Part shown: one piece after another, positions 1,224 to 55,675 of the stretch | Layout: each line of letters opens with the position of its first letter | Numbering within the stretch: position 1 is the first letter of the stretch | Virus record (IMG/VR): IMGVR_UViG_3300008050_000038 | Span: 4,268-68,267 of that record | Strand: one strand, 5' to 3' | DNA from: a virus | Length of the DNA: 64,000 nt | Program-made: the position numbers and the translations under genes | Notes under the pieces: model-generated | Seen by the model: the letters and a program-made list of their open reading frames with translations, nothing else | Database searches by the model: none | Told to the model about the DNA's origin: nothing

Positions 1224-4200
1224 ATGGCTGAAGAAGATTCAAGGGAAGTACAGGAAATATATGAACAACTTGATAGCGCTCAAGATTCGCAAACCACATA
1301 TTCAGGAGTTCCAACAGAAGATCTACTTGGACTTTCTCGTGCAGTGTATAGCAACCCCTTATTACCTAAAACAAAAGAAAACTTATCTGCAGGAGCATTT
1401 GTACAAGCTAAAACTTCAAGGGTAACTCCTCAGTTTTCGCCTTCAACTGGTCCTAGATATATTTCTATACAAGCATATAGTGGTAATGCATTAAATGATA
1501 ATAATACATTTACTAGTTTAGGGCTAGATGTAGGACTTCAAATAAGAGTAACAAAAAAACCTGATAATGGTACTGGATGGGATGAAGTAATAGATGTACA
1601 AGATATTACACCTTATGATCCAGCGGATTGGACTGCTTGGAATGGAGTGCCAAATGCAGGATCACTTACTACCACTTCAAGTGCAACTCATATTCATTTA
1701 AGTTATGATCATTTAGCATTTGATGCTTCAGCTAGTAATTACCAATATCATACTGATAGCGGTATATTTGATGTTGATGTTCAAGTAACATTTGCATCTG
1801 GCCATGTAGAAGTATTTACAATACCTTGTCCAGTAGGAGGATATTATTGGCAAGGACTTCAGTATGATACGTGGACTGGTCATGGAATATTAAGACATGA
1901 ACAAGATGTAAGTGCATGCGCAAGTAAAGCAGGAACAGAGTGGTATAGTAAAGGAAAAAACTTTATTCAAGGTCCTAGGCTTGTAGGAGCAGAAACAACT
2001 ATTCTTACAAGAATTGCTCCAGATACAAATTTTAATCCATCAGGAACTTTAGCAGATCGTGGTTATGTATCAAGATTAGATGCAAATGGAAGCACTTATT
2101 TTGAATATGTAAATAGAATTAATTATGATTGGGATGATTTTTTAACTGATACTTACGGTCAAAATGGAATTACAACTGTAGATCAATTTCAAACTTCAAA
2201 ACAAGTAATTAAAAGAATAGATGTACTTGCTCAAGATGGTACATTAGGACTAGGATATACTGATTTAATTGACGGTAAAAACTGGGCATGGTTTCAAGCT
2301 AACTACCAAACTAATTTAAATGGTAGCGGATATGTAGATGATATTTTTACTGCACCTAATGATCCTACATCATATGAAAGCACAGTAAATTCTATAAGAA
2401 ATCAACATCAAATTACTCAGTATTTTACAAGTACTTTTTATTACTCAGAAAATATTACAAGCTGTGCTGCCCCTACATCTACAACATATACTGTTTGTGA
2501 TACTCAAGGTAATCCTAGTTACTATGCAACAACTGGAGTTGATTGTAGTTCAACTACAATACCAACAGCAGATTTACCTGGAGGATCTAATTATACAAAT
2601 GTAACTTATGTTCATGATCCTGCTTGTTGTACTTTATGTACTTTAACAGCTAGTGTTTCCACAGTTGACTCTACAAATGGTGTTAACGATGGAGAAATAC
2701 ATTGGGATGCAACTTCAGGTGGTGTTGCTTCAGGAAATCCTTGGACTAGCGGTAGTGAGTATACAGTAACTATTACAAACTCATCAGGTACTGCAGTAGG
2801 GTATCAACCACCAACAGGAGGTAATACTTTTACTAACGCTACTTGTGATACTACAAATAATTCAAGTTTAGTAACTTGTAACTCAACTATAAATATAAAA
2901 CCAGGTATGCAAGTATCTGGTACTGGTATACCAACTAATACTTATGTTGGTATTATTACAACTGGTACAGTTGGTATAAATGTACAAGAATTTCAATTAG
3001 TAGATACACTAGGAAACATAGTTGATGCTACTGCTACAAATACAAACGAAACATTAACATTTGCAACAGGTCATACATCTATACATGGAGGACTAGCTGC
3101 AAATACTGTTGCTAACCCATTTTATACTGTATGTATAACTGATCAAGACGGATGTCAAGAGTGTAGTAGTGTAGTTGTTAATGAAAACCCAGTTATAACT
3201 ACTTATGGATGTACTGATGCAAGTGCAGTTAACTATGACCCTAATGCAACAATTAGTAATAATTCTTGTGTAACATGTAATTCAACTAATGGTTTATTAG
3301 AAGATCCTGTAAGTATTAATGTATCTCCTACTTGGGGGAATTTTGTTTCTTCACAGTCATCAGCTACTGAAAATAGTGCGTGTTCTACATGGAATAGTGA
3401 TGGTGTATTAAATGTTTCAGCAGCTCCATTATTTCCTCTTTATTTAGAATGGGATGCAAATTCTAAATTTGAGATACTATTATATAAAGTAGTTAATAAT
3501 GGAGATACCTCAACAAGCACTGGAGCAGCACAAATAGGAGGAACAATAAATGCAGGTACTCTTAATAATGTATCTGTAGCAGCACATGCATTTACAGGTT
3601 TAGATTATGGTTACTATTCTATAAGATTTAGATATGTAGACAGTAATACTACTTCTACAATGGAAGATTGTTGGAGTGAGTTTGGTGCGATAGTAAAAGC
3701 ACAAGTTTGTAATGATCCAAAAAATGTTTCATATTGTGGTACTCCTTCAGATCCTTTATTAAGAGATCCTCAATCTAATTTATGTACACCAACACCTCCA
3801 CAATGTTGTAATGTATCTACTTTATTATTAGAAGATTTAACTATAGCTGGTCCTTGTGGTGGACAACAAATTGAAACTACTATAGATTGTGATCCAGCAT
3901 GGAATGTAGATATTCAATGGTTATATAGCCCTACAGGAGCAACATATACTAGTCTTGGAACTTATAGTATGGGGTTTGTTTCAGGCGGACCAATTCCAAT
4001 ATATGCTTACAGTAACAATGATACTGCTAACGGAACAAATTGGTTTGCAACAAACGGTAGTGGATTTTATAAAGTAATATTAACTGGAACATTACCAGGC
4101 GCAAATCCATGTGTTACAGAAGAGTTTGCTTCATTTACAGCTCCTATTATAGGCTGTATGGATGTTGCAGCACATAATTATGACCCTACAGCAGTATGTC

Positions 4201-5669
4201 CAGGAACTTGTGCATACCCTTCATATGATTGTGATCCAAATACTGGTAATTGTATAGATCCTTGGAATGGAACTTTAACTGGATATACACCTGGAACTTA
4301 CAACTGTTTAACTGGACCAGGATGTTGTAATTCATATTGTTCACCCCCTGTTGTAATGGGATGTACAGATTCTTGTGCTGCTAATTATGATCCTAATGCA
4401 ACTCAAGATGATGGTTCATGTATGTATACTGCATGTTTACATTGGCCTTCTACAAATCAATATCAAAATTGTTGTAACAATAATTATTATCCTCTTTCAC
4501 AAATTATAGGAGCAGATAACTCTTGTTGTATAATGCCGTGTGCAACACCAAATACACTTTCATATACAATTACAGATAGTACTTCAACATGTACTACATT
4601 TAACAATGACGGATCAGTATCTGTTTCAGTAGTTTTAAATTTTTCAAATACAGCTACTTGGACTTTTGAAATATATGAAAACAATCAAACAACATTAATA
4701 TATACAGACCCAGTAACATATACAGGAAATACAACATCAAATGTATATTCACAATTAGGAAGTGGTAACTACTGGGGGGTAGTAACTGATAGTTATGGAT
4801 GTCATACAGGAATGGCTTTTACTATTAATAGTAATAATCCACTCGTAGGATGTACTGATCCAAATGCAGATAATTATAATCCATTAGCAGTTTGTGATTG
4901 TTGTTGTCAAGTTCAAGGGTGTTTAGATCCTAACGCATCAAACTTTAATCCAAATGCAAATATTCCTGGACAGTGTGATTATATATTACCACCTCCTAGT
5001 CCTTGTATTCCTCCAAGTTTAGACGAAGCTAAAATAAAAATAAAAGCATGTCTTAATAAAAAAGGAACAGATTGGTTAAATGATTATAAAGTAGGTAGAG
5101 CAGATGACTGTTCGTTAATGGATCAATGGAAATTGATTTTAGTTGATTATTTAGTAGATCAAGATATATCTTGTTTATATAATTGTCAAGACTTAGAAAC
5201 ACCTTCACCAACAATAGCTCAAAATTGTAATGATATTTGGGTTCAAGGTGGACCAAGTACAGGTATAAATCATCAATCAGCACACGCAGGAGCAAGCGTA
5301 ATAAATGCAGGAGAAGGAACAACAGTTACAGCATATGATAATTTTCCTACTGGATGGTTTGGAGTATCCCCTCTTTCTAATCCAGCAAATAATTTTACAT
5401 ATGTAGGAGATGTAATTAAATTTGATCTTCCATCTGGTCATCCTTTAGCTGCTTGGCTAAACGGAACAATATGGACATTGACAACTCCTAGTTCGTTCCC
5501 ATCTGGAATACACAATGGATGTTCGACTCAAAAAATACAACATTATACTCAATGTTTAGATATGAATACAATAAGCATAACTACAAATATTAATTATTAC
5601 GATAATTTTATTAACTTTGTAAACAAATTTTGTGCAGACTGTAATATATCTATACTAAATACAAAATAA
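1224..5669 (+). CDS. Large Cys-rich virion protein with SprB-like and GCTD repeats (adhesin/fibre with hub-like C-terminus)
   Basis: 1481 aa with no signal peptide. It has GC[TML]DxxAxN[YF]xPxA repeats, SprB-like units (LGSGNYWGVVTDSYGC, YTVCITDQDGC) and a helical Cys-containing C-terminus (FVNKFCADC). Confidence 0.65.
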   Translation: MAEEDSREVQEIYEQLDSAQDSQTTYSGVPTEDLLGLSRAVYSNPLLPKTKENLSAGAFVQAKTSRVTPQFSPSTGPRYISIQAYSGNALNDNNTFTSLGLDVGLQIRVTKKPDNGTGWDEVIDVQDITPYDPADWTAWNGVPNAGSLTTTSSATHIHLSYDHLAFDASASNYQYHTDSGIFDVDVQVTFASGHVEVFTIPCPVGGYYWQGLQYDTWTGHGILRHEQDVSACASKAGTEWYSKGKNFIQGPRLVGAETTILTRIAPDTNFNPSGTLADRGYVSRLDANGSTYFEYVNRINYDWDDFLTDTYGQNGITTVDQFQTSKQVIKRIDVLAQDGTLGLGYTDLIDGKNWAWFQANYQTNLNGSGYVDDIFTAPNDPTSYESTVNSIRNQHQITQYFTSTFYYSENITSCAAPTSTTYTVCDTQGNPSYYATTGVDCSSTTIPTADLPGGSNYTNVTYVHDPACCTLCTLTASVSTVDSTNGVNDGEIHWDATSGGVASGNPWTSGSEYTVTITNSSGTAVGYQPPTGGNTFTNATCDTTNNSSLVTCNSTINIKPGMQVSGTGIPTNTYVGIITTGTVGINVQEFQLVDTLGNIVDATATNTNETLTFATGHTSIHGGLAANTVANPFYTVCITDQDGCQECSSVVVNENPVITTYGCTDASAVNYDPNATISNNSCVTCNSTNGLLEDPVSINVSPTWGNFVSSQSSATENSACSTWNSDGVLNVSAAPLFPLYLEWDANSKFEILLYKVVNNGDTSTSTGAAQIGGTINAGTLNNVSVAAHAFTGLDYGYYSIRFRYVDSNTTSTMEDCWSEFGAIVKAQVCNDPKNVSYCGTPSDPLLRDPQSNLCTPTPPQCCNVSTLLLEDLTIAGPCGGQQIETTIDCDPAWNVDIQWLYSPTGATYTSLGTYSMGFVSGGPIPIYAYSNNDTANGTNWFATNGSGFYKVILTGTLPGANPCVTEEFASFTAPIIGCMDVAAHNYDPTAVCPGTCAYPSYDCDPNTGNCIDPWNGTLTGYTPGTYNCLTGPGCCNSYCSPPVVMGCTDSCAANYDPNATQDDGSCMYTACLHWPSTNQYQNCCNNNYYPLSQIIGADNSCCIMPCATPNTLSYTITDSTSTCTTFNNDGSVSVSVVLNFSNTATWTFEIYENNQTTLIYTDPVTYTGNTTSNVYSQLGSGNYWGVVTDSYGCHTGMAFTINSNNPLVGCTDPNADNYNPLAVCDCCCQVQGCLDPNASNFNPNANIPGQCDYILPPPSPCIPPSLDEAKIKIKACLNKKGTDWLNDYKVGRADDCSLMDQWKLILVDYLVDQDISCLYNCQDLETPSPTIAQNCNDIWVQGGPSTGINHQSAHAGASVINAGEGTTVTAYDNFPTGWFGVSPLSNPANNFTYVGDVIKFDLPSGHPLAAWLNGTIWTLTTPSSFPSGIHNGCSTQKIQHYTQCLDMNTISITTNINYYDNFINFVNKFCADCNISILNTK

Positions 5670-5683
5670 AAAATAGTTAAAAA

Positions 5684-7108
5684 ATGGCAACTAATAAAAA
5701 TATATACAGTTTAGGATCACTTGTAAAAACAAGTGTAGATGATTATGATTATCTAGAAACAGCTAATAGTGTAACTGATGCAGTTAAGAAATTGCAAGTA
5801 AGTTCATTATTTGCTTCGTTAGCTACTACAGGTACAAGTAGTGAAAGTTTATATGTAAACATAACAAATAAAAATCAATTAAATTTTAAAGGAATAAAAA
5901 GTGGAGATACAGGGTTATTAACTGTAGAGACTACTTCTAATAATATAGTATTAACAGCTTTAGAAGCCGGAATAGATTTAGATTTATGTAATAATGCAAA
6001 TGCATCATTTTTAAAATCTATTGATTTTACAGGAACTATTACAGGTCAAAACTCTGTAATCAATGGTGGAACAGGGTTAGCTACAATAGCAAAAGGAGCA
6101 ATGTTATACGCAAGTGCTACAGATACTATAGCTGCAACCTCAGCAATGTCTACAAACGGACAATTACTTATTGGTAACGCAACAACAGGAGTTCCTTCTT
6201 TGGCAACTCTTACTGCAGGAAGTAATATGACAATTACTAATACAGCTGGAGCAATCTCTTTAGCAGCTACCTTATCAACTGCAACAGCTAATTTAGATAT
6301 GGGTGATTACGATATTGATCTAGGTACAGGATGGTTAAGTGGTAATGGTAGTCATGAAGGTATCAATATTGATTCTGATGGTAAAGTATTTGTAGGAGAA
6401 GATACTCCTACAGCAGTTTTTGCAGAAGCATTAAATGTAAAAGGAAGTATTAGGTTTTTAAATACTGATGCACCTACAATAAAACCTACAGCTACATCAA
6501 GTTCAACTGCAGGATTAGCTTTGACATTAGAAAGTGGAAGTAGTGCTTCTGGTGCAGCTGGTAATTTAAATTTAACTGCTGGTACAGCATCAGGAAGTGC
6601 AGCAGGAGGTAGTGTAATTGTTACAGCAGGTAGAGATACATCTGGTTCTTCTGATGGCGATATACAATTAAAAACATATACAGGAGGTACAGCAACAGCT
6701 GGACTAACAATTGCGTCTGAAGGACAAGATGTAACAGTTAATACAGGTAACTTAGTTATAACTGGAGCTACAAAAGGAATTACATATACAAACAGAGGAA
6801 CAGTTACACAATCTGAAAATCATTCAGTAGGAGTTACAATTAATTCAACTGCAGGAGTAATAACATTAGCAGCTGTGGCTTTAGGAGCAGCTCAAAATGC
6901 AGAATTTACTGTAACGAATAGTACAGTAACTGCTAACTCAATTATTATGTTAACAGTGCAAGATGAGAATACAACTAATAATGCACAGTTAACTGCAGCT
7001 ACACATACAATAGGGAGTGGTAGTTTTAAAATATCAATATTTAATCCAGCAGCTACTGGATCAACCTCAACAACAGCAAGTAAAATTCACTTTTTAGTGA
7101 TAAATTAA
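5684..7108 (+). CDS. Tail fibre/spike protein
   Basis: 474 aa, Gly/Ala/Thr/Ser-rich, with the NGGTG..KGAMLYAS and NGQLLIGN motifs typical of phage fibres. Confidence 0.7.
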   Translation: MATNKNIYSLGSLVKTSVDDYDYLETANSVTDAVKKLQVSSLFASLATTGTSSESLYVNITNKNQLNFKGIKSGDTGLLTVETTSNNIVLTALEAGIDLDLCNNANASFLKSIDFTGTITGQNSVINGGTGLATIAKGAMLYASATDTIAATSAMSTNGQLLIGNATTGVPSLATLTAGSNMTITNTAGAISLAATLSTATANLDMGDYDIDLGTGWLSGNGSHEGINIDSDGKVFVGEDTPTAVFAEALNVKGSIRFLNTDAPTIKPTATSSSTAGLALTLESGSSASGAAGNLNLTAGTASGSAAGGSVIVTAGRDTSGSSDGDIQLKTYTGGTATAGLTIASEGQDVTVNTGNLVITGATKGITYTNRGTVTQSENHSVGVTINSTAGVITLAAVALGAAQNAEFTVTNSTVTANSIIMLTVQDENTTNNAQLTAATHTIGSGSFKISIFNPAATGSTSTTASKIHFLVIN

Positions 7109-7131
7109 TATTAACCAAACCAAAATAGACA

Positions 7132-7569
7132 ATGGAAACAAAAACAATTAGTACAACCAAAATGATTAATGCACCAAAAAAAGACTTTATATCTTTAATT
7201 AATGGATTATTTTCAGTTCAAGAATTAAAAGGTAAAAAGTTTGGATTAGTAGTAAGTAAGAATATTGAAATTCTTAGAGAATCTTTAAAAGAACTAGAAA
7301 CAGCAGGGCAACCTACTGAAGAGTTTATGGCATTAGCTACAGAAGTAAATGCAATAGCTGAAGCAAATGAAGAAGGAGCTAAAGAAAAAATACAACAAAT
7401 TGAAAAAGATAATCAAGAATTAGTTGACGCAAGAAGAGCTCAAATGGATGCTTTAACAGAAAAAATGAAAGAAGAAATTGAGATTGAACTTAATGTTATT
7501 TCAGAAGATCTTTTACCAGAAGACATAACAGCTAAGCAGATTAATCAAATAATAAAAATAACAGAATAA
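7132..7569 (+). CDS. Acidic helical protein, possible fibre assembly chaperone
   Basis: 145 aa, Glu-rich coiled coil, directly after a fibre gene. Confidence 0.45.
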   Translation: METKTISTTKMINAPKKDFISLINGLFSVQELKGKKFGLVVSKNIEILRESLKELETAGQPTEEFMALATEVNAIAEANEEGAKEKIQQIEKDNQELVDARRAQMDALTEKMKEEIEIELNVISEDLLPEDITAKQINQIIKITE

Positions 7570-7576
7570 AGGGTAA

Positions 7577-8653
7577 GTGAAAAGAGTATTAATCATATTG
7601 GTAGCTATATTATGTATAGCGGGAACTGTTACAGGACAGTCTATTTTAAAAAAGCAATTAAAATTTGCTACATTTTATGGGGCTGTTAATGGAGGTACAT
7701 CTATATCTGATGTAGAAACATTTTCTGTAACTCCTGGATATTTAAATACAGAGTTAATTGAAACTCCATATGATTATTCTCTTACACTAGGTATAAGAAA
7801 AATAGCTAGATTTGGATATGAAAATAGAGCTTCTACTTTTTACGATGGAACAGAATCTAATTATACAGATGCAGCAACAGTAGGTAAAGTTCAAGGGTTT
7901 GAATATTTATTTGAAGTTGATTATTCTAGACAACAAGGTGTTGATTATATAAATCAACATCATTTCATTAGATATAGTTCTGATGACGATTGTGATGGTC
8001 CTTTATGCATAAATCAATTTGCTGCTAAAGTAGAATATGTAAAAGATGGATTTGCTGACGTAGAATATTTTGAATTATCAGAAAGATATAGATGGAAGAA
8101 AAATAGAAATCTTTCTTTTAGTGTAGGGGCGGCACATAGATTAGCAGAACCATATGGATATGATCCTTTAGATGAGTGGTTATTAGATAATGGTAATTTA
8201 CATTATACTTATTTAGCAATACAAGAAGGATATAATGTAGATGTGTATAATAATGTATATACTGATCCTAGTGGTAATATAGTAGCTAATAGTTCAGATG
8301 TTTGGAAAGAAGTAGTAATACCACAAGTATTATCTGATTATACAGATAAAAAAAGAAATGAATTATCAAATATAATACAACACTCAATTGTTTTAGGGTT
8401 TGATTATTACAAGTATAAGAAAAAAACATGGTTACACGCATGGGGTAACTTTATGCCTTATCATTATGATAATGGTGGTGATTTTTCATATCACAATTAT
8501 GTAGATGGGCAATGGATGGATTATTCTGGAGGTTTAATTTATGGTATAAAAATAAATAAAAGTTTAGGATATTTTGTAGAAGGAAAATATAACAAGTACT
8601 GGAACAGAGAGTGGTACGATTTTAAATTAGGAATTAATTATATAATATTTTAA
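7577..8653 (+). CDS. Outer-membrane beta-barrel protein
   Basis: GTG start. Sec signal peptide MKRVLIILVAILCIAGTVTG|Q, alternating aromatic beta-strands, and a C-terminal BAM-type signal YDFKLGINYIIF ending in Phe. Confidence 0.75.
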   Translation: MKRVLIILVAILCIAGTVTGQSILKKQLKFATFYGAVNGGTSISDVETFSVTPGYLNTELIETPYDYSLTLGIRKIARFGYENRASTFYDGTESNYTDAATVGKVQGFEYLFEVDYSRQQGVDYINQHHFIRYSSDDDCDGPLCINQFAAKVEYVKDGFADVEYFELSERYRWKKNRNLSFSVGAAHRLAEPYGYDPLDEWLLDNGNLHYTYLAIQEGYNVDVYNNVYTDPSGNIVANSSDVWKEVVIPQVLSDYTDKKRNELSNIIQHSIVLGFDYYKYKKKTWLHAWGNFMPYHYDNGGDFSYHNYVDGQWMDYSGGLIYGIKINKSLGYFVEGKYNKYWNREWYDFKLGINYIIF

Positions 8654-8664
8654 AAATAAAAAAA

Positions 8665-8835
8665 ATGAATTGGATTAATAGTTGGGCTAAAGGTAATAAA
8701 AAAGAAAAATACGAAGTATCTATAAGATTAGGAAGAATAACATTATTAGAAGCTAAAGTTTGTTTGTTTTGTACAAAAGGATGTAGTTCAAAAAAAGTAA
8801 GACTTATAGTATTAAATTTTGGGTTTGAAATATAA
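8665..8835 (+). CDS. Small 56-aa protein (not in ORF track)
   Basis: MNWINSWAKGNKKEKYEVSIRLGRITLLEAKVCLFCTKGCSSKKVRLIVLNFGFEI*. It has an A-rich leader, fills the gap exactly and overlaps the next gene by TAATG. Confidence 0.7.
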   Translation: MNWINSWAKGNKKEKYEVSIRLGRITLLEAKVCLFCTKGCSSKKVRLIVLNFGFEI

Positions 8836-9071
8836 TGTCAATGAAAAAAGACATATCATTAATGGAGCATAGAATGAATTCAATGGAAGATAAATTAGAT
8901 AAAATGGATGAGAAGTTAGATATGATAACGGAGAGGCTTTTAGATCCTGATTCAGGAGTAACTGCTCGGGTGAATAGAAATACTACTCATCGTAAAGTAA
9001 TGGGTAAAGCTTTGTGGGTTATCTATGCTGTAGTGATAGGAGTAGTTATTAAATTGATATGGAATGGGTAG
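8835..9071 (+). CDS. Coiled-coil protein with one C-terminal TM helix (holin/XhlA-like)
   Basis: 78 aa; heptad segment MEDKLDKMDEKLD followed by TM ALWVIYAVVIGVVIKLIW. Confidence 0.55.
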   Translation: MSMKKDISLMEHRMNSMEDKLDKMDEKLDMITERLLDPDSGVTARVNRNTTHRKVMGKALWVIYAVVIGVVIKLIWNG

Positions 9072-9345
9072 AGAATTAAATGAAGATAGTGGATTTAAAG
9101 TAAGTATTAAAACACTTATAGCAATTGGTGCTGCTATGGCTACAGTTATTAGTATGTGGTTTATGTTACAAGCTGATATTGAAGAAGCTAAGAAATTGCC
9201 AGAGCCTCCCCCTCAAGACGTAACAAGAATGGAGTTTGACATGAAAGATCAAATGATACGTAATACTATTATGACAACTCAAAAAGATGTAGAGGAAATT
9301 AAAGAATCTATGGAGAAAATAGAAGATAAACTTTATAACAGATAA
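9064..9345 (+). CDS. Single-pass membrane protein with periplasmic coiled coil
   Basis: 93 aa; N-terminal TM (LIAIGAAMATVISMWFML), Pro linker, then coiled coil. Confidence 0.6.
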   Translation: MGRELNEDSGFKVSIKTLIAIGAAMATVISMWFMLQADIEEAKKLPEPPPQDVTRMEFDMKDQMIRNTIMTTQKDVEEIKESMEKIEDKLYNR

Positions 9346-9713
9346 TGGAAGATAAAGCTGATAATATAACTTGGAAAGTTTTTGGATTTTATATATTAAT
9401 AATAGTTTTAATGTTAACATCTAATCTTGCTTTTAGTCAAATATCAGTATCTCAGTTTAATGCTGATTGGAATAAAGCTAATTCTGTTAAATGGATAGAT
9501 AAATTAAAAGATGTTAAAACTTTATCTTATGTAGATATTAGTACTAGTCCTGCAATACAGAAGAAGCATAAAATAGCAGTTATACCTACTATTATAATAT
9601 TTAAAGACGGTGAGGAAGTTGCTAGATTTCAAGCTGATCTTAGTTTCAAAATGCTAGCAACAAGAGAAGAAGTACAAGAAGAAATAGATAATCAATTAAT
9701 GAGCGATTTTTAA
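9345..9713 (+). CDS. Exported thioredoxin-fold protein lacking CxxC
   Basis: Signal/TM segment ending NLAFS|Q. QFNADWNKAN replaces the WCxxC site, and IAVIPTIIIFKDGEEVARF is the classic thioredoxin C-terminal motif. The protein has no Cys. Confidence 0.75.
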   Translation: MEDKADNITWKVFGFYILIIVLMLTSNLAFSQISVSQFNADWNKANSVKWIDKLKDVKTLSYVDISTSPAIQKKHKIAVIPTIIIFKDGEEVARFQADLSFKMLATREEVQEEIDNQLMSDF

Positions 9714-9714
9714 A

Positions 9715-12111
9715 ATGAAGAAAATATTATTTATATTATTATTATTACCAACGTTATTACTTAGTCAAGATTCTTGGGTTAGATTTCAAGTACAATTTGA
9801 TTTCTATGCTCCATCAGAATCTAACTTTTTTATGGTATCTGATAATAATGGAGATACTTCTATGTTTTTTCAACCAACAAGTCAATATGAATATTTAGAT
9901 ACTGTTATAGATATTAATAGTGGAAGTTATACTATAAGTTTAAGAGACAGTTTTGGGGACGGATGGATTTCATCTCAACCTTCTTCTTTTAGAATGGGGA
10001 ACACATGTCAAGGAGCTATAATAGATTGGAATCCAGTATTAGGTTCATTTTTCCAAAGAGATACTACAGTTAATATTATGCCTTGTCCGCCACCTGGTCC
10101 ACCACCGGCGTGTGTACCAACTTTAATAATAATAAATTTAGATCAATACCCAGAAGAAACTTCTTGGGAAATTGAAGATTCACTAGGTAATATAGTTTTA
10201 ACAGGAGGACCTTATATAAATGTCCCTGACTATCAACCTCAATATATAGTAAATTGTTTACCTCAAGGTAATTTAACTTTTACTATTAATGATACTTATG
10301 GAGATGGATTAGCTGGTACATTGTGGGGAGGACAAGATGGATCGTATTATGTAGTGCAATGTGGAGACACCTTAGTTTTTGGAGATGTTCCTAACTTTGG
10401 CAACGATTCTTCACATACGTTTTTATCTGACACTTGCATACCTCCACCACCTGTACCAGGTTGTATGGATGATGATTATGTAGAGTACAATTCACTAGCC
10501 ACAGTAGATGATAGTAGTTGTGCAATTTTAAAAATATATGGTTGTATAGATAGTGTAATGTATAACTATGACCCTCTTGCAAATACAATGGAGAATATTG
10601 ATTCGTGTGGATATACATTAATATTACACGATCTTATAGGTAATGGATGGGTAGGAACAAGATTAGAGATATGGCAAGATGCAGATACTTCTATATTTAT
10701 TATGACATCGCAGGCAGCTAATCAAAGTTTTAATTTAGGTTTATATGCACCAACTGAAGTTAATATAAAACTTTTTATATCTCAACAAGCACAACACACT
10801 GCTGTTGAATGTGGGTTTACTTTAATAAATCCATTAGGAGACACAACAATAAGTATACAGCCTCCATTTATAATACCTTTTAATACTTATACTGCTAATA
10901 CATATTGTGGTAATATATGTGAAGAAAAAGTTTATGGATGTTTAGATAGTTTAGCATTTAACTATGCTGATACTGCTAATACCTCTTTACCTTGTTATTA
11001 TTATCCTGGGTGTATATCACCAGCATATGTAGAGTATCATGCAGATACTGCTAATAGTTATTATACTGATATAAATATACAAGATAGTTGTATAACCCCA
11101 GCAGTATTTGGATGTACTGATTTATTAGCATTTAATTATAATAATTTAGCTAATGTAGATAATGGAGGATGTTTACCTGTAATTATAGGATGTATGCAGC
11201 CTTTAGCATTTAACTATAATCCTAATGCTAATACTCCTGATACTTGTATTCAAGTTATATTTGGATGTACATCTCCTATAGCTTTTAATTATAACCCATT
11301 AGCAAACACGGATGATGGAAGTTGTGAAAGTGTAGTTTATGGATGTACTGATACTAGTATGTGGAACTATGCTCCTTTAGCAAATATAGATGATAGTTCC
11401 TGTGTTCCATATATATTTGGATGTATGGATCCAACTATGTTTAATTATAATCCTAATGCAAATACTGATAACGGATCTTGTGAACCATTTGTTTATGGTT
11501 GTATGGATTCCACTATGTTTAACTTTAATCCTTTAGCTAATGCTGACAATAATACTTGTATCCCTTTTATTTACGGGTGTACTGATCCCTCTATGCTTAA
11601 CTACAACTCATCCGCTAATACAGAAGATTTCAGTTGTATTGCTTACATTTATGGTTGTACTGATAGTACTTCTATTAACTATGATTCACTTGCTAATACT
11701 GACAATGGTTCGTGTATTGAAGCAGTTGTCGGATGTATGGACCCAAATGCGTGGAACTACAACCCACTAGCAAATGTAATTTTAGGACATGATTCATTAG
11801 GTTGTTTGTATGCTGCTGATTGCAATGCTACAGAACCTGGAGAACCTTATTTTCTAAATGATGAATGTTATGCTTGGGTTATAGAAGTAGATGAGTATTG
11901 TTGTAATAATGAGTGGGATAGTATATGTCAATTAACTTATGATTATTGTTATGGTACTTATACTGGGCCTTTAGTGTCTAGAGTTGTAGAGGCTAGGCAA
12001 TTAATACAAGTAACGGATCTACTAGGTAGACCAAGTAAAGAAAAAAGAAATAAGCTTTTATTATATATATATAGTGATGGAAGTGTAGAAAGAAAAATAA
12101 CAATAAAATAA
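9715..12111 (+). CDS. Secreted Cys-repeat surface protein with T9SS-like C-terminal sorting domain
   Basis: Signal peptide MKKILFILLLLPTLLLS|Q, three D-x-[FYI]-G-[DN]-G beta modules, 13 GCTD-type repeats, a CYAWVIEVDEYCCNNEWDSIC module, and C-terminal LIQVTDLLGR...LLYIYSDGSVERKITIK. Confidence 0.75.
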   Translation: MKKILFILLLLPTLLLSQDSWVRFQVQFDFYAPSESNFFMVSDNNGDTSMFFQPTSQYEYLDTVIDINSGSYTISLRDSFGDGWISSQPSSFRMGNTCQGAIIDWNPVLGSFFQRDTTVNIMPCPPPGPPPACVPTLIIINLDQYPEETSWEIEDSLGNIVLTGGPYINVPDYQPQYIVNCLPQGNLTFTINDTYGDGLAGTLWGGQDGSYYVVQCGDTLVFGDVPNFGNDSSHTFLSDTCIPPPPVPGCMDDDYVEYNSLATVDDSSCAILKIYGCIDSVMYNYDPLANTMENIDSCGYTLILHDLIGNGWVGTRLEIWQDADTSIFIMTSQAANQSFNLGLYAPTEVNIKLFISQQAQHTAVECGFTLINPLGDTTISIQPPFIIPFNTYTANTYCGNICEEKVYGCLDSLAFNYADTANTSLPCYYYPGCISPAYVEYHADTANSYYTDINIQDSCITPAVFGCTDLLAFNYNNLANVDNGGCLPVIIGCMQPLAFNYNPNANTPDTCIQVIFGCTSPIAFNYNPLANTDDGSCESVVYGCTDTSMWNYAPLANIDDSSCVPYIFGCMDPTMFNYNPNANTDNGSCEPFVYGCMDSTMFNFNPLANADNNTCIPFIYGCTDPSMLNYNSSANTEDFSCIAYIYGCTDSTSINYDSLANTDNGSCIEAVVGCMDPNAWNYNPLANVILGHDSLGCLYAADCNATEPGEPYFLNDECYAWVIEVDEYCCNNEWDSICQLTYDYCYGTYTGPLVSRVVEARQLIQVTDLLGRPSKEKRNKLLLYIYSDGSVERKITIK
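10456..11806 (+). repeat. About 13 copies of a ~26-aa (78-nt) GC[TM]DxxAxNYNPxANxDDGSC coding repeat
   Basis: Visible in the translation, e.g. FGCTSPIAFNYNPLANTDDGSC and FGCMDPTMFNYNPNANTDNGSC. The copies are diverged at DNA level and interrupted once by a beta module. Confidence 0.9.
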
Positions 12112-12120
12112 ATAAAACAA

Positions 12121-12519
12121 ATGGCAACATTAACAGCAAAATTAAGCTTATCAAGTTCAAATGTTTCAACAGACAATTTAAGTGTACTCCTAAGTAATGT
12201 TTTAACAGTAGGTGGAGATTATAGAAGTTTTAGAAAAATTATAGCTTCAGGAGCAAGTAATTTAGAAACAGCAAACATAGTAATAAGCAACGCTTCTTAT
12301 GGAAAAGCATATGTTTTACTTCATAACACAAGTATTGTAGCAGCAGAAATAATAACTATAGGTGAGAATGCTGATACTAATGCAACTTTAGATTATACTA
12401 ATATAACTTTAGGAGCAGGAGAATTTGCATTTTACCCTTGGAATTCTACAGTAGATTTAGTAGCAGACGCTGCTTCTGGAGACCCAGTATTAGAAGTAAT
12501 GATATTTGAAGCAGCATAA
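12121..12519 (+). CDS. Small virion beta-protein, paralogue A
   Basis: 132 aa; MATLTAKLSLSSSN...YVLLHN...GAGEFAFYP. Confidence 0.55.
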   Translation: MATLTAKLSLSSSNVSTDNLSVLLSNVLTVGGDYRSFRKIIASGASNLETANIVISNASYGKAYVLLHNTSIVAAEIITIGENADTNATLDYTNITLGAGEFAFYPWNSTVDLVADAASGDPVLEVMIFEAA

Positions 12520-12547
12520 TAAAAATTAAAATAAAAAATAAAAAGAC

Positions 12548-12910
12548 ATGGCAACAGTAAAAGCAACATTAGGTATATCTAGCTCAAACGCTTTATTAGA
12601 TAGTATTAATTTATCTTTAACAAATAATTTAACTACTACAGATCCTGCGGATGTAGGTAGAATCACTGTATTGCATAGTGGACCTACAGAATTAGCAGCA
12701 GCTAGTACTGGAGCTCATTATGTATACATAAAAAATATAAGTAGTACTAACAGCAAACCAGTAGATATTAGAACTGCAGCGGGTACAGCTTATGCTCAAA
12801 TAGCTACAGGAGAATTTGCATACATTCCAGCTAAAGTAAATCTTGGTATAGAGGTAATTGCAATAGATGAGTCTGTAGTAGTAGAATACGCAATATTTAA
12901 AAAATCATAA
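12548..12910 (+). CDS. Small virion beta-protein, paralogue B
   Basis: 120 aa; MATVKATLGISSSN...YVYIKN...ATGEFAYIP, clearly related to the upstream gene. Confidence 0.55.
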   Translation: MATVKATLGISSSNALLDSINLSLTNNLTTTDPADVGRITVLHSGPTELAAASTGAHYVYIKNISSTNSKPVDIRTAAGTAYAQIATGEFAYIPAKVNLGIEVIAIDESVVVEYAIFKKS

Positions 12911-12913
12911 TAA

Positions 12914-13375
12914 ATGGACAATATAAGTGAACATATAAGCTATAAAGAAGCAGTAACAAGTGCTACAGGGTTAAGATTAGGTTTAGATAATACTCCTGGT
13001 CCTGAACAATTAAAATGTATGCAGGAAATTGCTAAATATTTATTTGAACCTTTAAGAGAATGGGTTGGAGGTCCAATAAAAATAACTAGTATGTTTAGAG
13101 GAAAGCCTGTTAATACGGCTATAGGAGGAGCTAAACACTCACAACATATGAAAGGTCAAGCTTTAGATTTAGATGATACATTTGGACACAAAACCAATGC
13201 TGAAATGTTTCATTATATAAAAGATAATCTAGACTTTGATCAATTAATATGGGAGTTTGGAGATGATGAAAATCCTAATTGGATACATGTGAGTTATGTT
13301 ACACATCGTGAAAACAGAAAAAAATTAACATTAGCAAAAAAAATAAACGGTAAAACAAAATATATAAATATATAG
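12914..13375 (+). CDS. Endolysin, peptidase M15 family
   Basis: Zn-binding motifs ITSMFR...N.AIGGA.HSQHMKGQALD and WIHVSY of M15A peptidases. Confidence 0.9.
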   Translation: MDNISEHISYKEAVTSATGLRLGLDNTPGPEQLKCMQEIAKYLFEPLREWVGGPIKITSMFRGKPVNTAIGGAKHSQHMKGQALDLDDTFGHKTNAEMFHYIKDNLDFDQLIWEFGDDENPNWIHVSYVTHRENRKKLTLAKKINGKTKYINI

Positions 13376-13377
13376 AT

Positions 13378-13623
13378 ATGGCAAAGTGGTTAAAGCAAGC
13401 TAAAGTAACAAATAACATTTACACAGGAGATGCAAATTATGTGCATGATCAAGGAATCCCTGCAGCACAATGGGTGATCACTCATAACTTAGGGAAGAAA
13501 AGTTCTGTTACAGTTGTTGACTCTAGCAACCAAGTAGTAATAGGTAAAATAACTTATAACAGTGTTAATCAAGTTACTTTAGACTTTCAAAGTGCTTTTT
13601 CAGGAAAGGCTTTCTTTAATTAA
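13378..13623 (+). CDS. Small fibre-associated protein (HNLG domain)
   Basis: 81 aa; WVITHNLGKK.SVTVVD, similar to the C-terminal domain of the next gene. Confidence 0.6.
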   Translation: MAKWLKQAKVTNNIYTGDANYVHDQGIPAAQWVITHNLGKKSSVTVVDSSNQVVIGKITYNSVNQVTLDFQSAFSGKAFFN

Positions 13624-21087: not shown

Positions 21088-21972
21088 ATGAGTATATACA
21101 AAACAGTATCAAGTAAAGTAGTAATCAGAAAAATATTTAGAGATCTTAAACCTTCAAAAGATAATTGGATAGATGACGCTATAGAATGGATAGGAGAAGC
21201 TTTAGAGCATATTGGGGCTGCACCACAGCTATGTCAAAAACAATGTGTTTTAAATATTAAAGATCATAAAACAATGATGCCTTCTGATCTTTACTATATA
21301 AATCAAGTAGCAATTAATAATAAAGTTTCTATTGCATCTTCTGAAGAACTAGACACATTAACATCTAAAGTAAAAGACTTACAAGATCAAATTAAAGATG
21401 CGCAAGCAAATGGATTAGAATACTCAGATACAGCTTCAGTATTACATGATATAAATAGTAGAATTGTAATATTAGAAAATGTTTATTTTTCAGGAGATGT
21501 TAATATGCAACCTTTACAATACGGTGCAAGTACTTTTCATAGAAGTATGCATTGTGACGGGTGTATAAATGAAAATATAAACTATGAAGAAACTTATATT
21601 GTAGATTGTGATTATATAAAAACATCTTTTAAAACAGGTAAAATATGTATAAGCTATATGGCTTTACCTATAGATGATGATTGCTATCCTCTAGTGCCAC
21701 AAGACATTAGTTATCAAGAAGCTATGTTTTGGTATGTATATAAAAAAATGTTATTGTCAAATCCACAAATTAAAAACAATGGGATAGATTATAATTTTGC
21801 AGATCAGAAATGGAAGTACTACTGCACACAAGCTAGAAACGCAGCTAACTTCCCAGACATAGATAGAATGGAAAGCTTTATGAATCAATGGGTTAGACTA
21901 ATACCACAGATAGATAGTCATGATTTAGCTTTTGAAAACTTAAACACAAGAGAAAATTTATATAGAAGCTAA
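21088..21972 (+). CDS. Tail tubular/ring protein (P22 gp4-like)
   Basis: IEWIGEALEHIG, YIKTSFKTGKICISYMALPIDDDCYPLVP and W.YYCTQARN. It lies immediately before the muzzle gene, as in crAss-like phages. Confidence 0.8.
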   Translation: MSIYKTVSSKVVIRKIFRDLKPSKDNWIDDAIEWIGEALEHIGAAPQLCQKQCVLNIKDHKTMMPSDLYYINQVAINNKVSIASSEELDTLTSKVKDLQDQIKDAQANGLEYSDTASVLHDINSRIVILENVYFSGDVNMQPLQYGASTFHRSMHCDGCINENINYEETYIVDCDYIKTSFKTGKICISYMALPIDDDCYPLVPQDISYQEAMFWYVYKKMLLSNPQIKNNGIDYNFADQKWKYYCTQARNAANFPDIDRMESFMNQWVRLIPQIDSHDLAFENLNTRENLYRS

Positions 21973-24900
21973 TGGCAGATAAGAGATTTGTAAAAGGATT
22001 ATTTAAAGATACTGGACACATTGATCAGCCAGAGGGAACGTGGAGACATGCTCGTAATATGGTTATTAACGCTACAGATGGGGCTGTATCTAATGAGGGA
22101 GGAACAAGACTTAGAGGACATTTAGGAAGTAATTCAACTATAGGAGCTCAAAATGATCAAGTAATTGGAACTATTGAAGCTTCTGAAGATAGAACAATTA
22201 TGTTTGTTACTGATGTAATGAGCGCTCCAGGAGTAGCTAGAAGTGAAATAGGTATTTATGAAGATGGTATATATACTATGTTATTTAATCCTAGTATTGC
22301 AACTAAACCTACTAATGATTTAAACTTTAGACAAAGCCACCCAATTGAAGGTACTTTTAAAATTGATTCTAAAGGAGACTTAATTGTATATTGGACAGAT
22401 GATTTAAATCCTCCTAGAACTTTTAATGTAGACAGACAAAGACGAGAAAGTACTATAGGGGGAATTTTACAGATTAGTAGGTTGTATGGTATTACTTCTG
22501 CTAACTTAGATAATATAGATATATTAAATTTGTTTCCATATTCAGGACCTGTTCCTCATATAGATATAGATGATAAAGGCACACACCAAGGATCAATTGT
22601 TGAGGGAGGTGGATTATTAACTGCAGTGTATTATTTAGCACTAGCATATGTTGATAATGATTTAACAGCTACAAACTTTTTAACTGTTTCTAATCCAATA
22701 TCTATTGTAGACGATTATGATAGCACAACTCCTACTAACAAAAAAGATGGGGCAAAAGAAGGTAGTCAAACTACTAAAGCTATTAAATGGGATATATCTA
22801 ATTTAAATGTAGATTATGGTATTTTAAGGCCTGTTGTAATAAGAAGTAAAGGAGAAGCTAGAGAAGCTTTTAAATTAAATGATGTGTCTTTTAATACTAC
22901 AACAACTAGTGTTTTATACACTGGGTTAGAAACAATTTCGGCTGGATCAGTAGAAGAGGTTATAATAGATACCATAGCATATAATAAAGCTAAAACAATT
23001 CAGCAACTAGATAATGTATTATACTTAGGAAACACATCTTCTTTACCAGATTTAGATTATCAAAAATATGCTAATAATATTAAGCTGCGAGCTAAAACAA
23101 TAACAATTGAAAACTTTGATGAATTTTATGCGTCAGTAGATAATTTTGAAAGTGGGTGGGGTAATAGACCTGTAAATGAATATGGGGGAGTAGTTTATAG
23201 TGTAGACCCAACTAAATCGTATAGATATGGCCCTAATATATTTAAATACAAAGGATACACGAGAGATGAAGTATATGCTTTTTATATAGCTTTTATTATG
23301 AAAGATGGTAGTATGTCTTATGCATATCACATACCAGGAAGAGAAGATTTGTGGGACGAAAAAGAACCTGTAAATAATTTAAATGCTCCTGACTATGGAG
23401 GCTTATGGCAAGATGATATTTATAATGTTAGCCCAGAGTATGGTAAAAGATTCCATTGGATTGACTCTACAGTAGATTCAATATCAGGCTCATCATATGA
23501 TCCTATTCAAGCAAGAAAAATGAATTATTGGGAAAACGCTACAGAGTTTTATCCTAACACAAGTAATTATGAAGTATGGGATAATACAAATGGAGGTCAA
23601 CAATTGCCTGGTAGCGCAGGAAGTATAAAGGGTTTAAATGTTAGACATCACCATTTTCCTTCTAATAGAAATAGTAGTATGAGAAGTGTGTCAGATGATA
23701 ATTGTAGAACATCTAGTAGCTCTACAGCATCTAATTATGCAGGTACTGTATATAATGAAGCAATTACAGTATTAGATGTTACTGGTGGTCAAGGAGGAGC
23801 TATTCCTAATCCAGGATCTTGGAGAAGAGTTAGATTTACTACTACAAATGGAGGCTCATATTTTAATAATACTCCAGCAATGCAAACATCTGTTAATGAT
23901 CATTGGGACAGTTCTAATTCAATTTTTACAGCTCAATCTAATATTGATGTTAGAGTTAAATGGGCTATATGGTATGAGCAAAATACTGGATTAACTACTA
24001 GAAGTTTTTGCACAAGATTAAGAACTAATCAAGGAGGATCTCCTTGGACGCTAAGTAGTGATTGCAATAATGCAAGTCCTTATGGTAGTGGTGGTAGTTG
24101 TGGAGGAAGTCAAACAGATTTTAATGCAAGTCCACAAGTGTTTGGAAATATTGCATTAACTGGAGTTAGTAGTGGTGGAGGAGTTTTAGTATCGTTACAA
24201 CCAGGAGAATCAATATGGTTAGAAGATGCGCAAAATACAACTGGAGGTGTAAATTATTATCAAGCTACTCCAGGAGAAATAAATTGTTCTGGAGGTGCAC
24301 CAGGACAACCAAATACTTGTAGTAGTGGAAGTTATAACCCACCATGTTTAAGCGCAATTGAATTTGATATTAAAAGTTCATTTTTAAATATAAACCCAGA
24401 TGATTATGCTGACGCTAAAATAAGTCATGATGTAAAAAGATTAGGATTTGATTTAGAAGATATTAAAATTCCACAATCAATAGCTGATAAAGTTCAAGGG
24501 TTTAGAATATATTATGCAAAACGAGAACATTCAAATAGAACTGTTTTAGGGCAACAAATACTTATACCATCGCAACGTAAAAGAGCTTTATTAGGAATTT
24601 GTAACGAAGCAATGTCAGGGACAGCTACTGCTGAAGCTTTACAATCTTTATCAACTTTACAAACTAATACAGAAGAGTTTTATAACATGCAACCTTATAC
24701 TTTAGCTCCTTGGGATTATCCTGTATTGCCTCACTATTATGAAACAGGAGGACCTACTAATCCTGTAGGTTCAATAAATACTACTGATTATGCTTATGAT
24801 ACATTTTCTTTTCATGACTTTTATTTACAAAGAACTAAAAACAGTTTATCTCCAGCAACTCATGTTAATATAGAATATTATGTACAAAATCTAGCGTGGA

Positions 24901-54502: not shown

Positions 54503-55675
54503 TTAATTTAATTGAATTTTAATTCCAGGTAACTCTTCGTTAATCCTAGATTTACTGCTGTGTACCCATAATGCATTCTTAGGGCAGTCTTTTGGGTTCT
54601 CCGCCTCTCCATCTGTTAGACATATAAACCCTGAGTATCTATTTTTAGGGTCATTGTAATGATCTACCACCGGCTGAAAGAATGTACCGCCTCTACCTTT
54701 AATTTCCCAATTTTTCTTAGGATCAAAAGGCGATACATCTGTAATTTGTGTATCAAATTGTGCTACAGTTATTTGATTACCGGTTTTATGCATATGAGCT
54801 AACTCATGCATAAATTCTACTAGCTCTTCACTACTAACAGATCCTGAAGTATCAACGCCTACAAGCACGTGATTCCTACGTTTAATTTTAAGACCTGGAT
54901 TTCCTGAATAACGCTTATTATTTTTACGTCTAAGTTTTTTAGTATATACTATAGATGAGTTGTTAACATAGCGTTTAAGAAAAGATTTCCAATTGAATTT
55001 AGGAGGTTGTAGATTAAATAACTTTTCAATTATCTCTGCTAGCTCCCCCGGTATATCTCCACATTGCTTTTGAATCTCTTCAGCTGTAGTTTTCATCTGA
55101 TGTTCATATTGCTTTTGAACTAGTTTCTTCTCAGCTTCAGGAAGATCTGTAACTTCTTCCCATTCTTTATGATCATATTGACTGTTACCGTCCATTTGAT
55201 CTAGAACTCCTTGAAGTCCTGGATTACTTGAATTACCATTTTCATCGCATTCTTGATTAAGTATGTCATAATAGACTTTAGTACCTGCTTTCTCTGGTAA
55301 ATATATACCCGGGAAAGAGTTTCTCTTCAAGCCACCTGGCGGAAGCATATGCTCAGCAATATATTGGTTGATTTCTATATCTGCCGCAATATTAAAAAGC
55401 TTTTTATTAGGGTATCTATCTGCCAGTATAATATGTCCAAAAGCTATATGTAATAGCTCATGTTTTAGCAAGCCGTGTTGATGGTGTTCACTTAATTCTG
55501 AGAAAAAGACTGGATTTATAACTAGTCTCATCCCAATGCCGTGTTTTCCTACACCAGCTGTAGCACACTTCTCAGTAAACTCTTTTTGAAGTCCAATAAG
55601 AAATATGCCATAAAAAGGCTCGGAGAATATCAATGTTTTTGATACTCTCGCAAGTTGTTCGTGTGTTGTTCTCAT
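54503..55675 (-). CDS. DUF2201-type metallopeptidase + vWA domain protein
   Basis: HELLH and NIAADIEIN; MIDAS VDTSGS; GRGGT.F and LTDG. Confidence 0.9.
   Translation of the reverse strand: MRTTHEQLARVSKTLIFSEPFYGIFLIGLQKEFTEKCATAGVGKHGIGMRLVINPVFFSELSEHHQHGLLKHELLHIAFGHIILADRYPNKKLFNIAADIEINQYIAEHMLPPGGLKRNSFPGIYLPEKAGTKVYYDILNQECDENGNSSNPGLQGVLDQMDGNSQYDHKEWEEVTDLPEAEKKLVQKQYEHQMKTTAEEIQKQCGDIPGELAEIIEKLFNLQPPKFNWKSFLKRYVNNSSIVYTKKLRRKNNKRYSGNPGLKIKRRNHVLVGVDTSGSVSSEELVEFMHELAHMHKTGNQITVAQFDTQITDVSPFDPKKNWEIKGRGGTFFQPVVDHYNDPKNRYSGFICLTDGEAENPKDCPKNALWVHSSKSRINEELPGIKIQLN

Follow-up and report, generated by a model that had tools for sequence, protein, structure and literature searches.

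A conserved gene module of marine phages that may export a variable surface protein from infected Bacteroidota

Introduction

Why would a phage carry, between its tail-fibre genes, a set of genes for proteins that seem to belong in the envelope of a bacterial host? The question is raised by a six-gene block in a stretch of viral DNA of 64,000 nt (the window; positions 4,268–68,267 of the 68-kb IMG/VR virus record IMGVR_UViG_3300008050_000038, CheckV completeness 79%). A sequence-only reading of this DNA had described the products as an outer-membrane (OM) β-barrel, a 56-amino-acid (aa) CxxCxxxC protein, two small membrane proteins of 78 and 93 aa, an exported thioredoxin fold and a 798-aa protein resembling type IX secretion system (T9SS) cargo. 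All six open reading frames (ORFs) were found on the + strand, at 7577–12111. To judge by its genes, the window comes from a marine phage that has not been cultivated, kin to crAss-like and Flavobacterium/Cellulophaga phages: its structural genes show 23–31% identity to virion proteins of crAss-like phages, Cellulophaga phage phi14:2 and Flavobacterium phages, they also match virion-protein PHROGs, and the replication genes lie on the opposite strand.

Our main conclusion, to which we give about an even chance, is that these genes make up a conserved envelope module in the late region, by which a surface-exposed or secreted protein of variable make-up leaves infected cells of Bacteroidota, most likely Flavobacteriia. 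The observations behind the sequence-only reading were confirmed and its interpretation was partly supported; the function proposed here is a prediction from sequence.

A conserved core of four genes

We scanned IMG/VR with the 358-aa barrel protein and found relatives encoded in 418 of 436 candidate viral stretches. The best 80 of these 418 (69–94% barrel identity) served as our locus set, in which genes were counted by tblastn with the window proteins; many of the misses reflect loci cut by contig ends. The barrel was present in all 80 loci, the 93-aa membrane protein in 76 and the thioredoxin-like protein in 74. The 798-aa protein, hereafter the cargo, was matched in 67, six of these matches being signal-less fibre proteins that were hit via repeats; our overall count for the Cys-repeat cargo is about 63 loci. 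Homologues of the 93-aa protein (52–90% identical) always lay immediately upstream of the thioredoxin-like gene, and the 93-aa, thioredoxin-like and cargo genes travelled as a trio that stood either upstream or downstream of the barrel. Since the trio stays together with the barrel across loci, the conserved core consists of four genes, those of the barrel, the cargo, the thioredoxin-like protein and the 93-aa membrane protein. By contrast, the 56-aa gene was found in 31 of the 80 loci and the 78-aa gene in 18. Thus, the proposed six-gene module stood for the four core genes, which are co-conserved in many phages, but not for the two remaining genes, which are accessory.

Barrel relatives were numerous in protein collections as well (3592 proteins at E ≤ 0.001 in a large protein database, 322 in a 50%-identity representative library). 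A scan of genome contigs gave 13 barrel loci, all of them on contigs of metagenome-assembled genomes (MAGs; L082–L094) labelled Pelagibacter, Nitrosopelagicus, Woesearchaeota, Rickettsiales, Parvibaculum, Maricaulis and Flavobacteriales/Flavobacteriaceae. The scatter of these labels gives the appearance of mis-binning, and the contigs are probably phage contigs placed in unrelated genomes. A profile of the barrel matched 2 of 301 genomes of the order to which G001, a Flavobacteriales MAG, belongs, and from these searches the barrel looks phage-specific. Comparison of phage with host genomes therefore agreed with the sequence-only reading: core gene order is kept in the phage loci and the barrel is nearly confined to phage contigs. 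Among the cultured phages of INPHARED, where near records may be missing, the block had no blastn match and neither the barrel nor the thioredoxin-like protein had a tblastn match; the cargo was matched there only through its repeats.

The cargo family carries two exchangeable tails

The sequence-only reading had likened the C-terminal DLLGR tail of the cargo to T9SS sorting domains. We compared the C-termini of the 60 complete cargo ORFs and found two forms. Most of them (55) end in ...ITDLLGRP......N..LFYIYxDGTxEKKxIK, a short tail; the window cargo, too, has the short form. The other five (L024, L053, L056, L063 and L079) end in a true T9SS C-terminal domain (CTD), Por_Secre_tail PF18962, with scores of 35.1–45.7 bits against a cut-off of 27. 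The two forms part exactly after a conserved C-G-W-GP--R junction, beyond which the short tail extends for ~36 residues and the true CTD for ~64; the Cys-rich helical domain is retained in both. A hidden Markov model (HMM) built from the five CTD tails found no further copy in the 80 loci. On a quick barrel tree that included four of the five CTD loci, these were scattered and required four changes. By this measure, tails have been exchanged, or cargo genes recombined, several times within an otherwise constant module. We regard this swap as the best evidence that the cargo of the family is destined for the cell surface and that the place of a T9SS signal is, functionally, taken by the short tail.

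Is the short tail itself a T9SS domain? The window cargo matched no Pfam family at E ≤ 0.1 over its whole length, and none at E ≤ 10 with its last 119 or 69 residues. It matched no NCBIfam model at E ≤ 1, hence neither type A (TIGR04183) nor type B (TIGR04131), and PF18962 had no match at E ≤ 10 anywhere in the 68-kb record. An AlphaFold2 (AF2) model of the last 130 residues consists of the helical domain followed by three strands (C-terminal alignment positions 95–99, 113–118 and 123–127), with a predicted local distance difference test score (pLDDT) of 84–88; Foldseek found no PDB match for it at E ≤ 0.001. When hhalign was used to align the short tail to the true CTDs of the five loci, the result was not significant (global probability 0.5%, local 10% over 17 columns). 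Solved T9SS CTDs are compact 3+4 β-sandwiches of seven strands, an architecture described as essential (PMC11285876). The likeness of the DLLGR tail to a T9SS CTD was thus not borne out in full, as just the last strands resemble a sorting domain and three strands are modelled rather than a seven-strand sandwich. The wider claim of a T9SS-type cargo survives for the gene family, five positional homologues bearing PF18962 at the tail position, but not for the window's own tail, which neither HMM nor predicted fold recognises. Among Atlas language-model neighbours of the tail, the nearest named clusters were viral PF18962 clusters at 0.79, a weak lead that lies below the meaningful level. One locus encodes a second, unrelated exported protein of 169 aa (L061:9688–10197), which ends in ...IRDLLGKELIEIPIGKMYIKNNKKCIRIK, a DLLGK-type short tail; the short tail thus seems portable.

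The remainder of the cargo is modular. It contains 41 Cys, and the 13 Cys repeats previously counted in it were recovered, 12 by a regular expression and one degenerate copy by eye. The repeats, which are of disulphide type, make up a stalk. The upstream fibre-like protein of 1481 aa has the same repeat, and so does a gene of cyanophage S-CAM3 whose annotation is virion structural protein. Cargo heads vary between loci, and many carry an N-terminal MAM domain (PF00629), which would make them domains of the adhesion or binding type. A match between cargo head and type of phage fibre was considered and rejected: loci that share a homologue of the 474-aa fibre protein bear several head types.

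Three module proteins carry Bacteroidota-type export signals

Gln at position +1 after signal-peptidase I cleavage is known as the Bacteroidetes Q-rule (PMC5837995, PMC10653852). In the window, Gln directly follows the predicted cleavage site (marked by an arrow) of the barrel (...TVTG↓Q), the thioredoxin-like protein (...LAFS↓Q) and the cargo (...LLLS↓Q), as the sequence-only reading had noted. We looked for such signals with a crude classifier of our own, which seeks a hydrophobic core, then a small residue, then Gln. Applied to the 53 window ORFs of at least 90 aa, it flagged six, and a true hydrophobic core was present only in the three module proteins. The signal with Gln at +1 was near-universal among homologues (barrels 75/79, thioredoxin-like proteins 73/74, cargo matches 62/69). 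The exceptions comprise two barrel ORFs shortened by our ATG-only ORF rule, four proteins in which xAQ is seen by eye (L007, L077, L080 and L071) and the six fibre proteins. All 60 complete cargo homologues have a signal peptide; that of the window cargo, MKKILFILLLLPTLLLS↓QDS, is a Sec signal, conserved among homologues as read by the crude classifier. PorP proteins of three Flavobacteriales MAGs (G001–G003) have the same AQQ-type sites. The conserved signal and Gln thus bear out the earlier claim that the three proteins are exported with signal peptides of the Bacteroidota type.

An alternative N-terminus was seen on 27 of 79 barrels (among them those of L008, L010, L011, L014, L020, L026 and L027) and on three cargo proteins (L002, L035 and L063). 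In it, (A/T)PKKCC(S/G/A)Q comes after a lipobox-like L-(A/S)-x-C, and it may be a lipoprotein form. As it is found on two different proteins, this cassette seems to be a swappable targeting module.

A thioredoxin fold that has lost its redox cysteines

The 122-aa protein matched Pfam Thioredoxin PF00085 with 24.9 bits (cut-off 23.5) over residues 50–100 only, its C-terminal half. A profile of 28 homologues gave 149 PDB sequences at E ≤ 1 (best E 5.9e-7), and among the 60 matches listed all were thioredoxin-fold proteins. At the redox site the window protein reads FNADWNKAN, with W-N-K-A-N where thioredoxins have W-C-x-x-C. Four residues, W42, N43, N46 and P81, are invariant in the 28 sequences, and the cis-Pro loop is kept: P81 in ...IAVIPTIIIFKDG aligns with ...EALPTFILFKDG of 7bzk. 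The exported thioredoxin fold without CxxC is therefore real by homology, with an invariant Asn pair in place of the redox Cys pair; the fold is kept and, to go by these residues, catalysis is lost. This combination suggests a role in binding. In protein disulphide isomerase (PDI), the domains b and b' likewise have a thioredoxin fold that lacks CxxC and keeps the cis-Pro region, and they are thought to bind substrates, not to oxidise them. Unlike them, the phage protein is a stand-alone, predicted periplasmic protein of 90 residues with an invariant W-N-x-x-N.

The barrel resembles general outer-membrane barrels

The 358-aa barrel belongs to no Pfam (E ≤ 0.1), NCBIfam or PHROG family that our searches could find. 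An AF2 model from 27 diverse sequences (pLDDT 75, predicted template modelling score 0.69) has ~14 strands, with an insert of helical structure at residues 197–262. With a signal peptide, a C-terminal Phe and a closed antiparallel barrel in the model, the protein has the features of a generic OM barrel, and the fold matches agree with the earlier description of the first gene. Foldseek retrieved 55 PDB barrels at E ≤ 0.001, all generic OM types (FapF, NanC, OmpG, porins, autotransporters and FadL). By VIA-align the best match was Tsx (Z 13.6; 195 residues aligned; root-mean-square deviation 4.1), followed by NanC/KdgM (12.4), autotransporter translocator domains (10.2–12.2) and FapF (9.9). Eighteen chains scored Z ≥ 8, and among the matches listed all of these are OM barrels; identity to the structural matches was 3–12%. 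FadL types scored lower than Tsx (FadL Foldseek E 5.7e-4; VIA Z 7.1 for a FadL homologue and 6.8 for TodX).

The sequence-only reading had likened the barrel to the T9SS barrels PorV and PorP/SprF. PF11751, the PorP/SprF family, had no match in the record at E ≤ 10, and hhalign of the barrel alignment with six PorP/SprF proteins from the three MAGs aligned the signal peptide alone (probability 8%). Among the barrel matches listed there was no PorV or SprA chain, which does not exclude that family. With no PF11751 or profile similarity and with 12-stranded Tsx, KdgM and autotransporter folds nearest, not the FadL/PorV type, the likeness was not upheld: on the model, the protein is a Tsx/KdgM/autotransporter-like OM barrel. 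Tsx and KdgM porins score as high as autotransporters or higher, so the fold singles out no function. The most conserved stretch, GIRKIARFGYENR...TFYDGTESNYTDAATVGKV (residues 72–105), is the least confident part of the model (pLDDT 33–41) and would fit a partner-binding loop. Prediction of a complex between barrel residues 22–358 and positions 45–130 of the C-terminal cargo module gave scores of 0.22 and 0.11 against a mark of 0.32, and weighs neither way. Named clusters among the Atlas neighbours of the barrel were the cyanophage OM barrel family PF24653 (0.93) and an autotransporter cluster (0.94).

Three further observations concern the barrel. One locus, L043, carries two barrel genes that flank the trio (2267–3367 and 8001–9077). 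In some relatives an extra exported protein of 136–162 aa follows the barrel gene directly (L011:9043–9453, L030:3032–3442, L036:9035–9445, L041:9127–9537, L054:7399–7809, L021:9922–10359 and L032:9048–9536); with its ...SAQ↓F signal and its end ...GKFVIGIAYKL/F it looks like a small second OM barrel, one that the window lacks. A 4051-aa protein of the representative library (P0234) gave eight separate matches to barrel residues 178–232, which may reflect composition or a repeat.

A proposed function and its alternatives

How might these proteins act together? We propose that the three signal-peptide proteins would be exported during infection via the Sec pathway and signal peptidase I of the host, which would expose the N-terminal Gln. 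In the periplasm the Cys-rich cargo would be retained or folded, the redox-dead thioredoxin fold serving as a non-catalytic binder, like the b' domain of PDI, and the 93-aa protein as an inner-membrane anchor carrying a Pro-rich linker and a helix. Cargo variants with a CTD would be carried to the surface or the medium by the T9SS of the host. Short-tail cargo, that of the window included, might reach the T9SS by means of a minimal signal, or else the phage's own barrel might translocate or anchor it. Once there, the variable head would most plausibly mask or bind a surface ligand, which would bring about superinfection exclusion or keep progeny from being lost on cell debris; adhesion is an alternative. 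A bolder version is tentative and, in our estimate, rather doubtful. It would make the module a self-contained system for surface display. The phage would supply its own 12–14-strand OM barrel as translocator or anchor, a tether in the inner membrane, a chaperone with a redox-dead thioredoxin fold and a new sorting tail of 36 residues, repeatedly exchanged in evolution with the T9SS signal of the host; the whole would display a rapidly shuffled adhesin or receptor mask on the flavobacterial cell. Several results weigh against an export module. The window tail matches no T9SS model, its three predicted strands differ from the 3+4 sandwich of solved CTDs, and its profile comparison with true CTDs was not significant. 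The barrel shows no similarity to PorP/SprF, and all five CTD-bearing loci keep it, which argues against a barrel needed only for the short tail. The cargo repeat is common to fibre-like and virion proteins, and an endolysin gene stands 0.8 kb downstream; the small membrane proteins could equally serve lysis.

This last point leads to the main rival, a device for lysis or OM disruption, in which an i-spanin-like 93-aa protein, the barrel as its OM partner and a holin-like 78-aa protein would disrupt the envelope as infection ends, with the help of the nearby endolysin. An endolysin lies inside the fetched flank of 24 of the 80 loci, and in four (L010, L026, L031 and L038) the 56-aa gene is directly upstream of it, although the Cys pattern of the 56-aa protein varies among homologues. 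The 78-aa gene, where present, is directly upstream of the 93-aa homologue (17 of 18 loci), and its product gave a weak XhlA match (E 0.087) besides unnamed PHROG matches. By inspection the 93-aa protein has an i-spanin-like layout, with an N-terminal span and a short periplasmic part, and the lipobox-like N-terminus of 27 of 79 barrels would suit such a device. Yet that periplasmic part has merely ~55 residues and the protein has no PHROG or Pfam support; most loci lack the 78-aa gene; and no ORF of at least 40 aa with a lipobox adjoins or lies within 9064–9345, the neighbours there encoding the 78-aa tail-anchored and the thioredoxin-like proteins, so that a lipoprotein o-spanin beside the 93-aa gene is missing from the window. 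Lysis also leaves unexplained why the 93-aa gene travels with a thioredoxin-like gene that is obligatory and with a cargo that is large, variable and equipped with MAM or T9SS domains. We therefore consider a lysis device unlikely, although the accessory 56-aa and 78-aa genes may belong to lysis.

The other alternatives each take up one part of the block. The barrel could be an auxiliary channel, a Tsx-like pore for nucleosides or nutrients that feeds replication, beside functionally unrelated exported proteins. That Tsx is the best structural match, with the KdgM/NanC porins next, and that a cyanophage OM barrel family is a named Atlas neighbour would be in keeping with a pore; however, the fold alone is shared, at the low identities given above, the most conserved stretch is a loop and not pore lining, and the strict linkage of barrel and trio over at least 70 loci is left unexplained. 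We find this channel quite improbable. Alternatively, the cargo could be a fibre component of the virion, its N-terminus uncleaved or the protein joining virions after lysis, so that the block would be ordinary tail morphogenesis. Its place between tail-fibre genes and the repeat shared with the signal-less 1481-aa protein and the cyanophage virion gene speak for this. Against it stand the signal peptide with Gln at +1 in essentially all complete cargo homologues, the T9SS sorting domain on five of them, and the co-inherited barrel with C-terminal Phe and exported thioredoxin fold, which are envelope proteins and not cytoplasmic assembly factors; a fibre is thus very unlikely in our view. For a host fragment captured once and useless to the phage we found no supporting point. 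The barrel occurs on hundreds of viral contigs, the core genes keep their order, and the barrel profile matched hardly any genomes of G001's order, the genome-contig matches all being MAG contigs. The last 99 residues of the cargo, moreover, matched 543 proteins, and among the 120 matches listed none had a functional name and all were close to the C-terminal module. A core co-conserved in so many phage genomes, with a barrel nearly confined to phages, agrees with the sequence-only reading that the block is not such a fragment, and the chance that it is one is practically nil.

Relation to known systems and significance

Phages with parts of such a system have been described, and the statement that no phage system of this kind is known was too strong: our literature search did not turn up the four-gene module, but phage T9SS cargo and phage proteins that follow the Q-rule are already published. 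Q-rule signal peptides are mentioned for Porphyromonas phage proteins (PMC10367356). The glacier 'Cryophage' encodes a T9SS cargo, which Bellas et al. (2020) call a unique occurrence (PMC7468147), and proteins with T9SS sorting domains occur in cluster 2 of the crAss-like gut contigs, according to de Jonge et al. (2019; PMC6949934). Like those cargo proteins as they are described there, five relatives of the window cargo are exported, vary between phage variants, bear a T9SS type A domain and belong to phages of Bacteroidota. Unlike the single cargo genes of those accounts, the genes here form a conserved multi-gene module, and most of its members, the window included, have a short non-canonical tail. 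In our literature search, to which supplementary gene lists did not belong, we met with neither the short tail nor a module that combines a barrel and an anchor with an inactive thioredoxin and a cargo.

Among bacteria, Flavobacterium johnsoniae has sprF beside sprB, that is, a PorP/SprF-type barrel next to its cognate T9SS type B cargo. The phage locus is alike in that an OM barrel gene adjoins the gene of a large surface protein with a special C-terminal signal; it differs in that the phage barrel has no PF11751 match and the phage cargo no match to a type B CTD in NCBIfam. Type V secretion offers another likeness, as the barrel model superposes on the translocators EstA, AaaA, NalP, AIDA-I and BrkA (Z 10.2–12.2) and on FapF (9.9). 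By this analogy one can imagine a barrel, encoded apart, through which a passenger is exported or by which it is anchored. Unlike in autotransporters, phage barrel and cargo are separate genes, and there is no sequence homology to type V systems.

Phage-made envelope proteins that are exported during infection, with receptor masking or superinfection exclusion as the outcome, include Llp of T5, Cor, and Lom and Bor of lambda. The role that we propose for the cargo resembles theirs, a phage-made protein being sent to the host envelope. In contrast to these single small lipoproteins or eight-strand barrels, the phage module has several genes and is unrelated in sequence; we know of no multi-gene export module or T9SS link for proteins of the Llp/Cor/Lom/Bor type.

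The lineage is common in ocean metagenomes, with barrel homologues in the thousands, and marine Flavobacteriia are major degraders of algal organic matter. If the proposal is true, a module that rewires the host surface bears on superinfection, particle attachment and phage–host range at sea. The natural swap of a canonical T9SS domain and a 36-residue tail at one junction offers a testable minimal signal, or an alternative route across the OM of Bacteroidota. The thioredoxin fold with its invariant Asn-x-x-Asn would show plainly how the fold of a redox enzyme is put to another use in the periplasm.

Gene layout and genome context

The features of the locus are collected in Table 1. Tail-fibre-like genes lie on both sides of the block (phrog_31660 at 1.8e-5 and phrog_21412 at 4.2e-28), as the sequence-only reading had placed them. 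The six genes are closely packed, as it had also said, but this is not peculiar to them: gaps of 0–34 nt prevail throughout the + strand from 5684 to 13623, so packing by itself defines no module.

Table 1. Coordinates (window numbering) of the genes and protein parts discussed in the text
Feature	Position	Strand	Remarks
Exported OM β-barrel, 358 aa, core	7577..8653	+	GTG start; signal peptide ...VTG↓Q; end ...NYIIF
CxxCxxxC protein, 56 aa, accessory	8665..8835	+	CLFCTKGC, confirming the motif of the sequence-only reading; no signal peptide or membrane span
Tail-anchored protein, 78 aa, accessory	8835..9071	+	N-terminal coiled-coil-like part, C-terminal hydrophobic span
Single-pass membrane protein, 93 aa, core	9064..9345	+	Hydrophobic span at N-terminus, then linker rich in Pro (LPEPPPQD) and conserved helix at C-terminus
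Exported thioredoxin-fold protein, 122 aa, core	9345..9713	+	PF00085 match; W-N-x-x-N replaces W-C-x-x-C
Exported modular cargo, 798 aa	9715..12111	+	Signal peptide ...LLS↓Q; N-terminal part variable; Cys repeats; C-terminal module conserved
~13 Cys repeats of cargo, residues 249–700	10459..11814	+	Form GC-D--A-NY-P-AN-DDGSC
Conserved Cys-rich helical domain of cargo, residues ~717–746	11863..11952	+	Alignment, model helices, junction alignment
Short C-terminal tail of cargo	11992..12108	+	...IQVTDLLGR...LLLYIYSDGSVERKITIK; predicted three-stranded sheet
Endolysin	12914..13375	+	phrog_894 at 9.8e-24; ~0.8 kb downstream of module
Fibre-like protein, 1481 aa, no signal peptide	1224..5669	+	ORF and repeat match; same Cys repeat as cargo

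A scan for sigma-70 promoters and terminators gave fewer promoter-like sites than shuffled sequence, with a consensus that does not cover Bacteroidota promoters, and no terminator-like site within the short intergenic gaps of the block. A search for sequencing runs listed 24 from 13 studies; three of these are RNA runs, which contain just 0.07–0.08 of the sampled words, and such small shares are not evidence.

Between the cargo and the endolysin lie two adjacent small paralogues (12121–12519 and 12548–12910; 132 and 120 aa), both of which begin MAT..KA.L..SSSN. They have homologues at the same position in several loci, and no family was found for them. Farther downstream, three giant ORFs follow one another on the + strand (21972–27455, 1827 aa; 32725–44964, 4079 aa; 44964–50174, 1736 aa), the 1827-aa ORF matching the virion structural family phrog_15100. 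Giant virion proteins are typical of crAss-like phages. On the − strand, the replication arm carries a gene resembling spore photoproduct lyase (PF20903, 1.8e-27; 55684–56538) beside a DUF2201 metallopeptidase/VWA-like gene (54503–55675).

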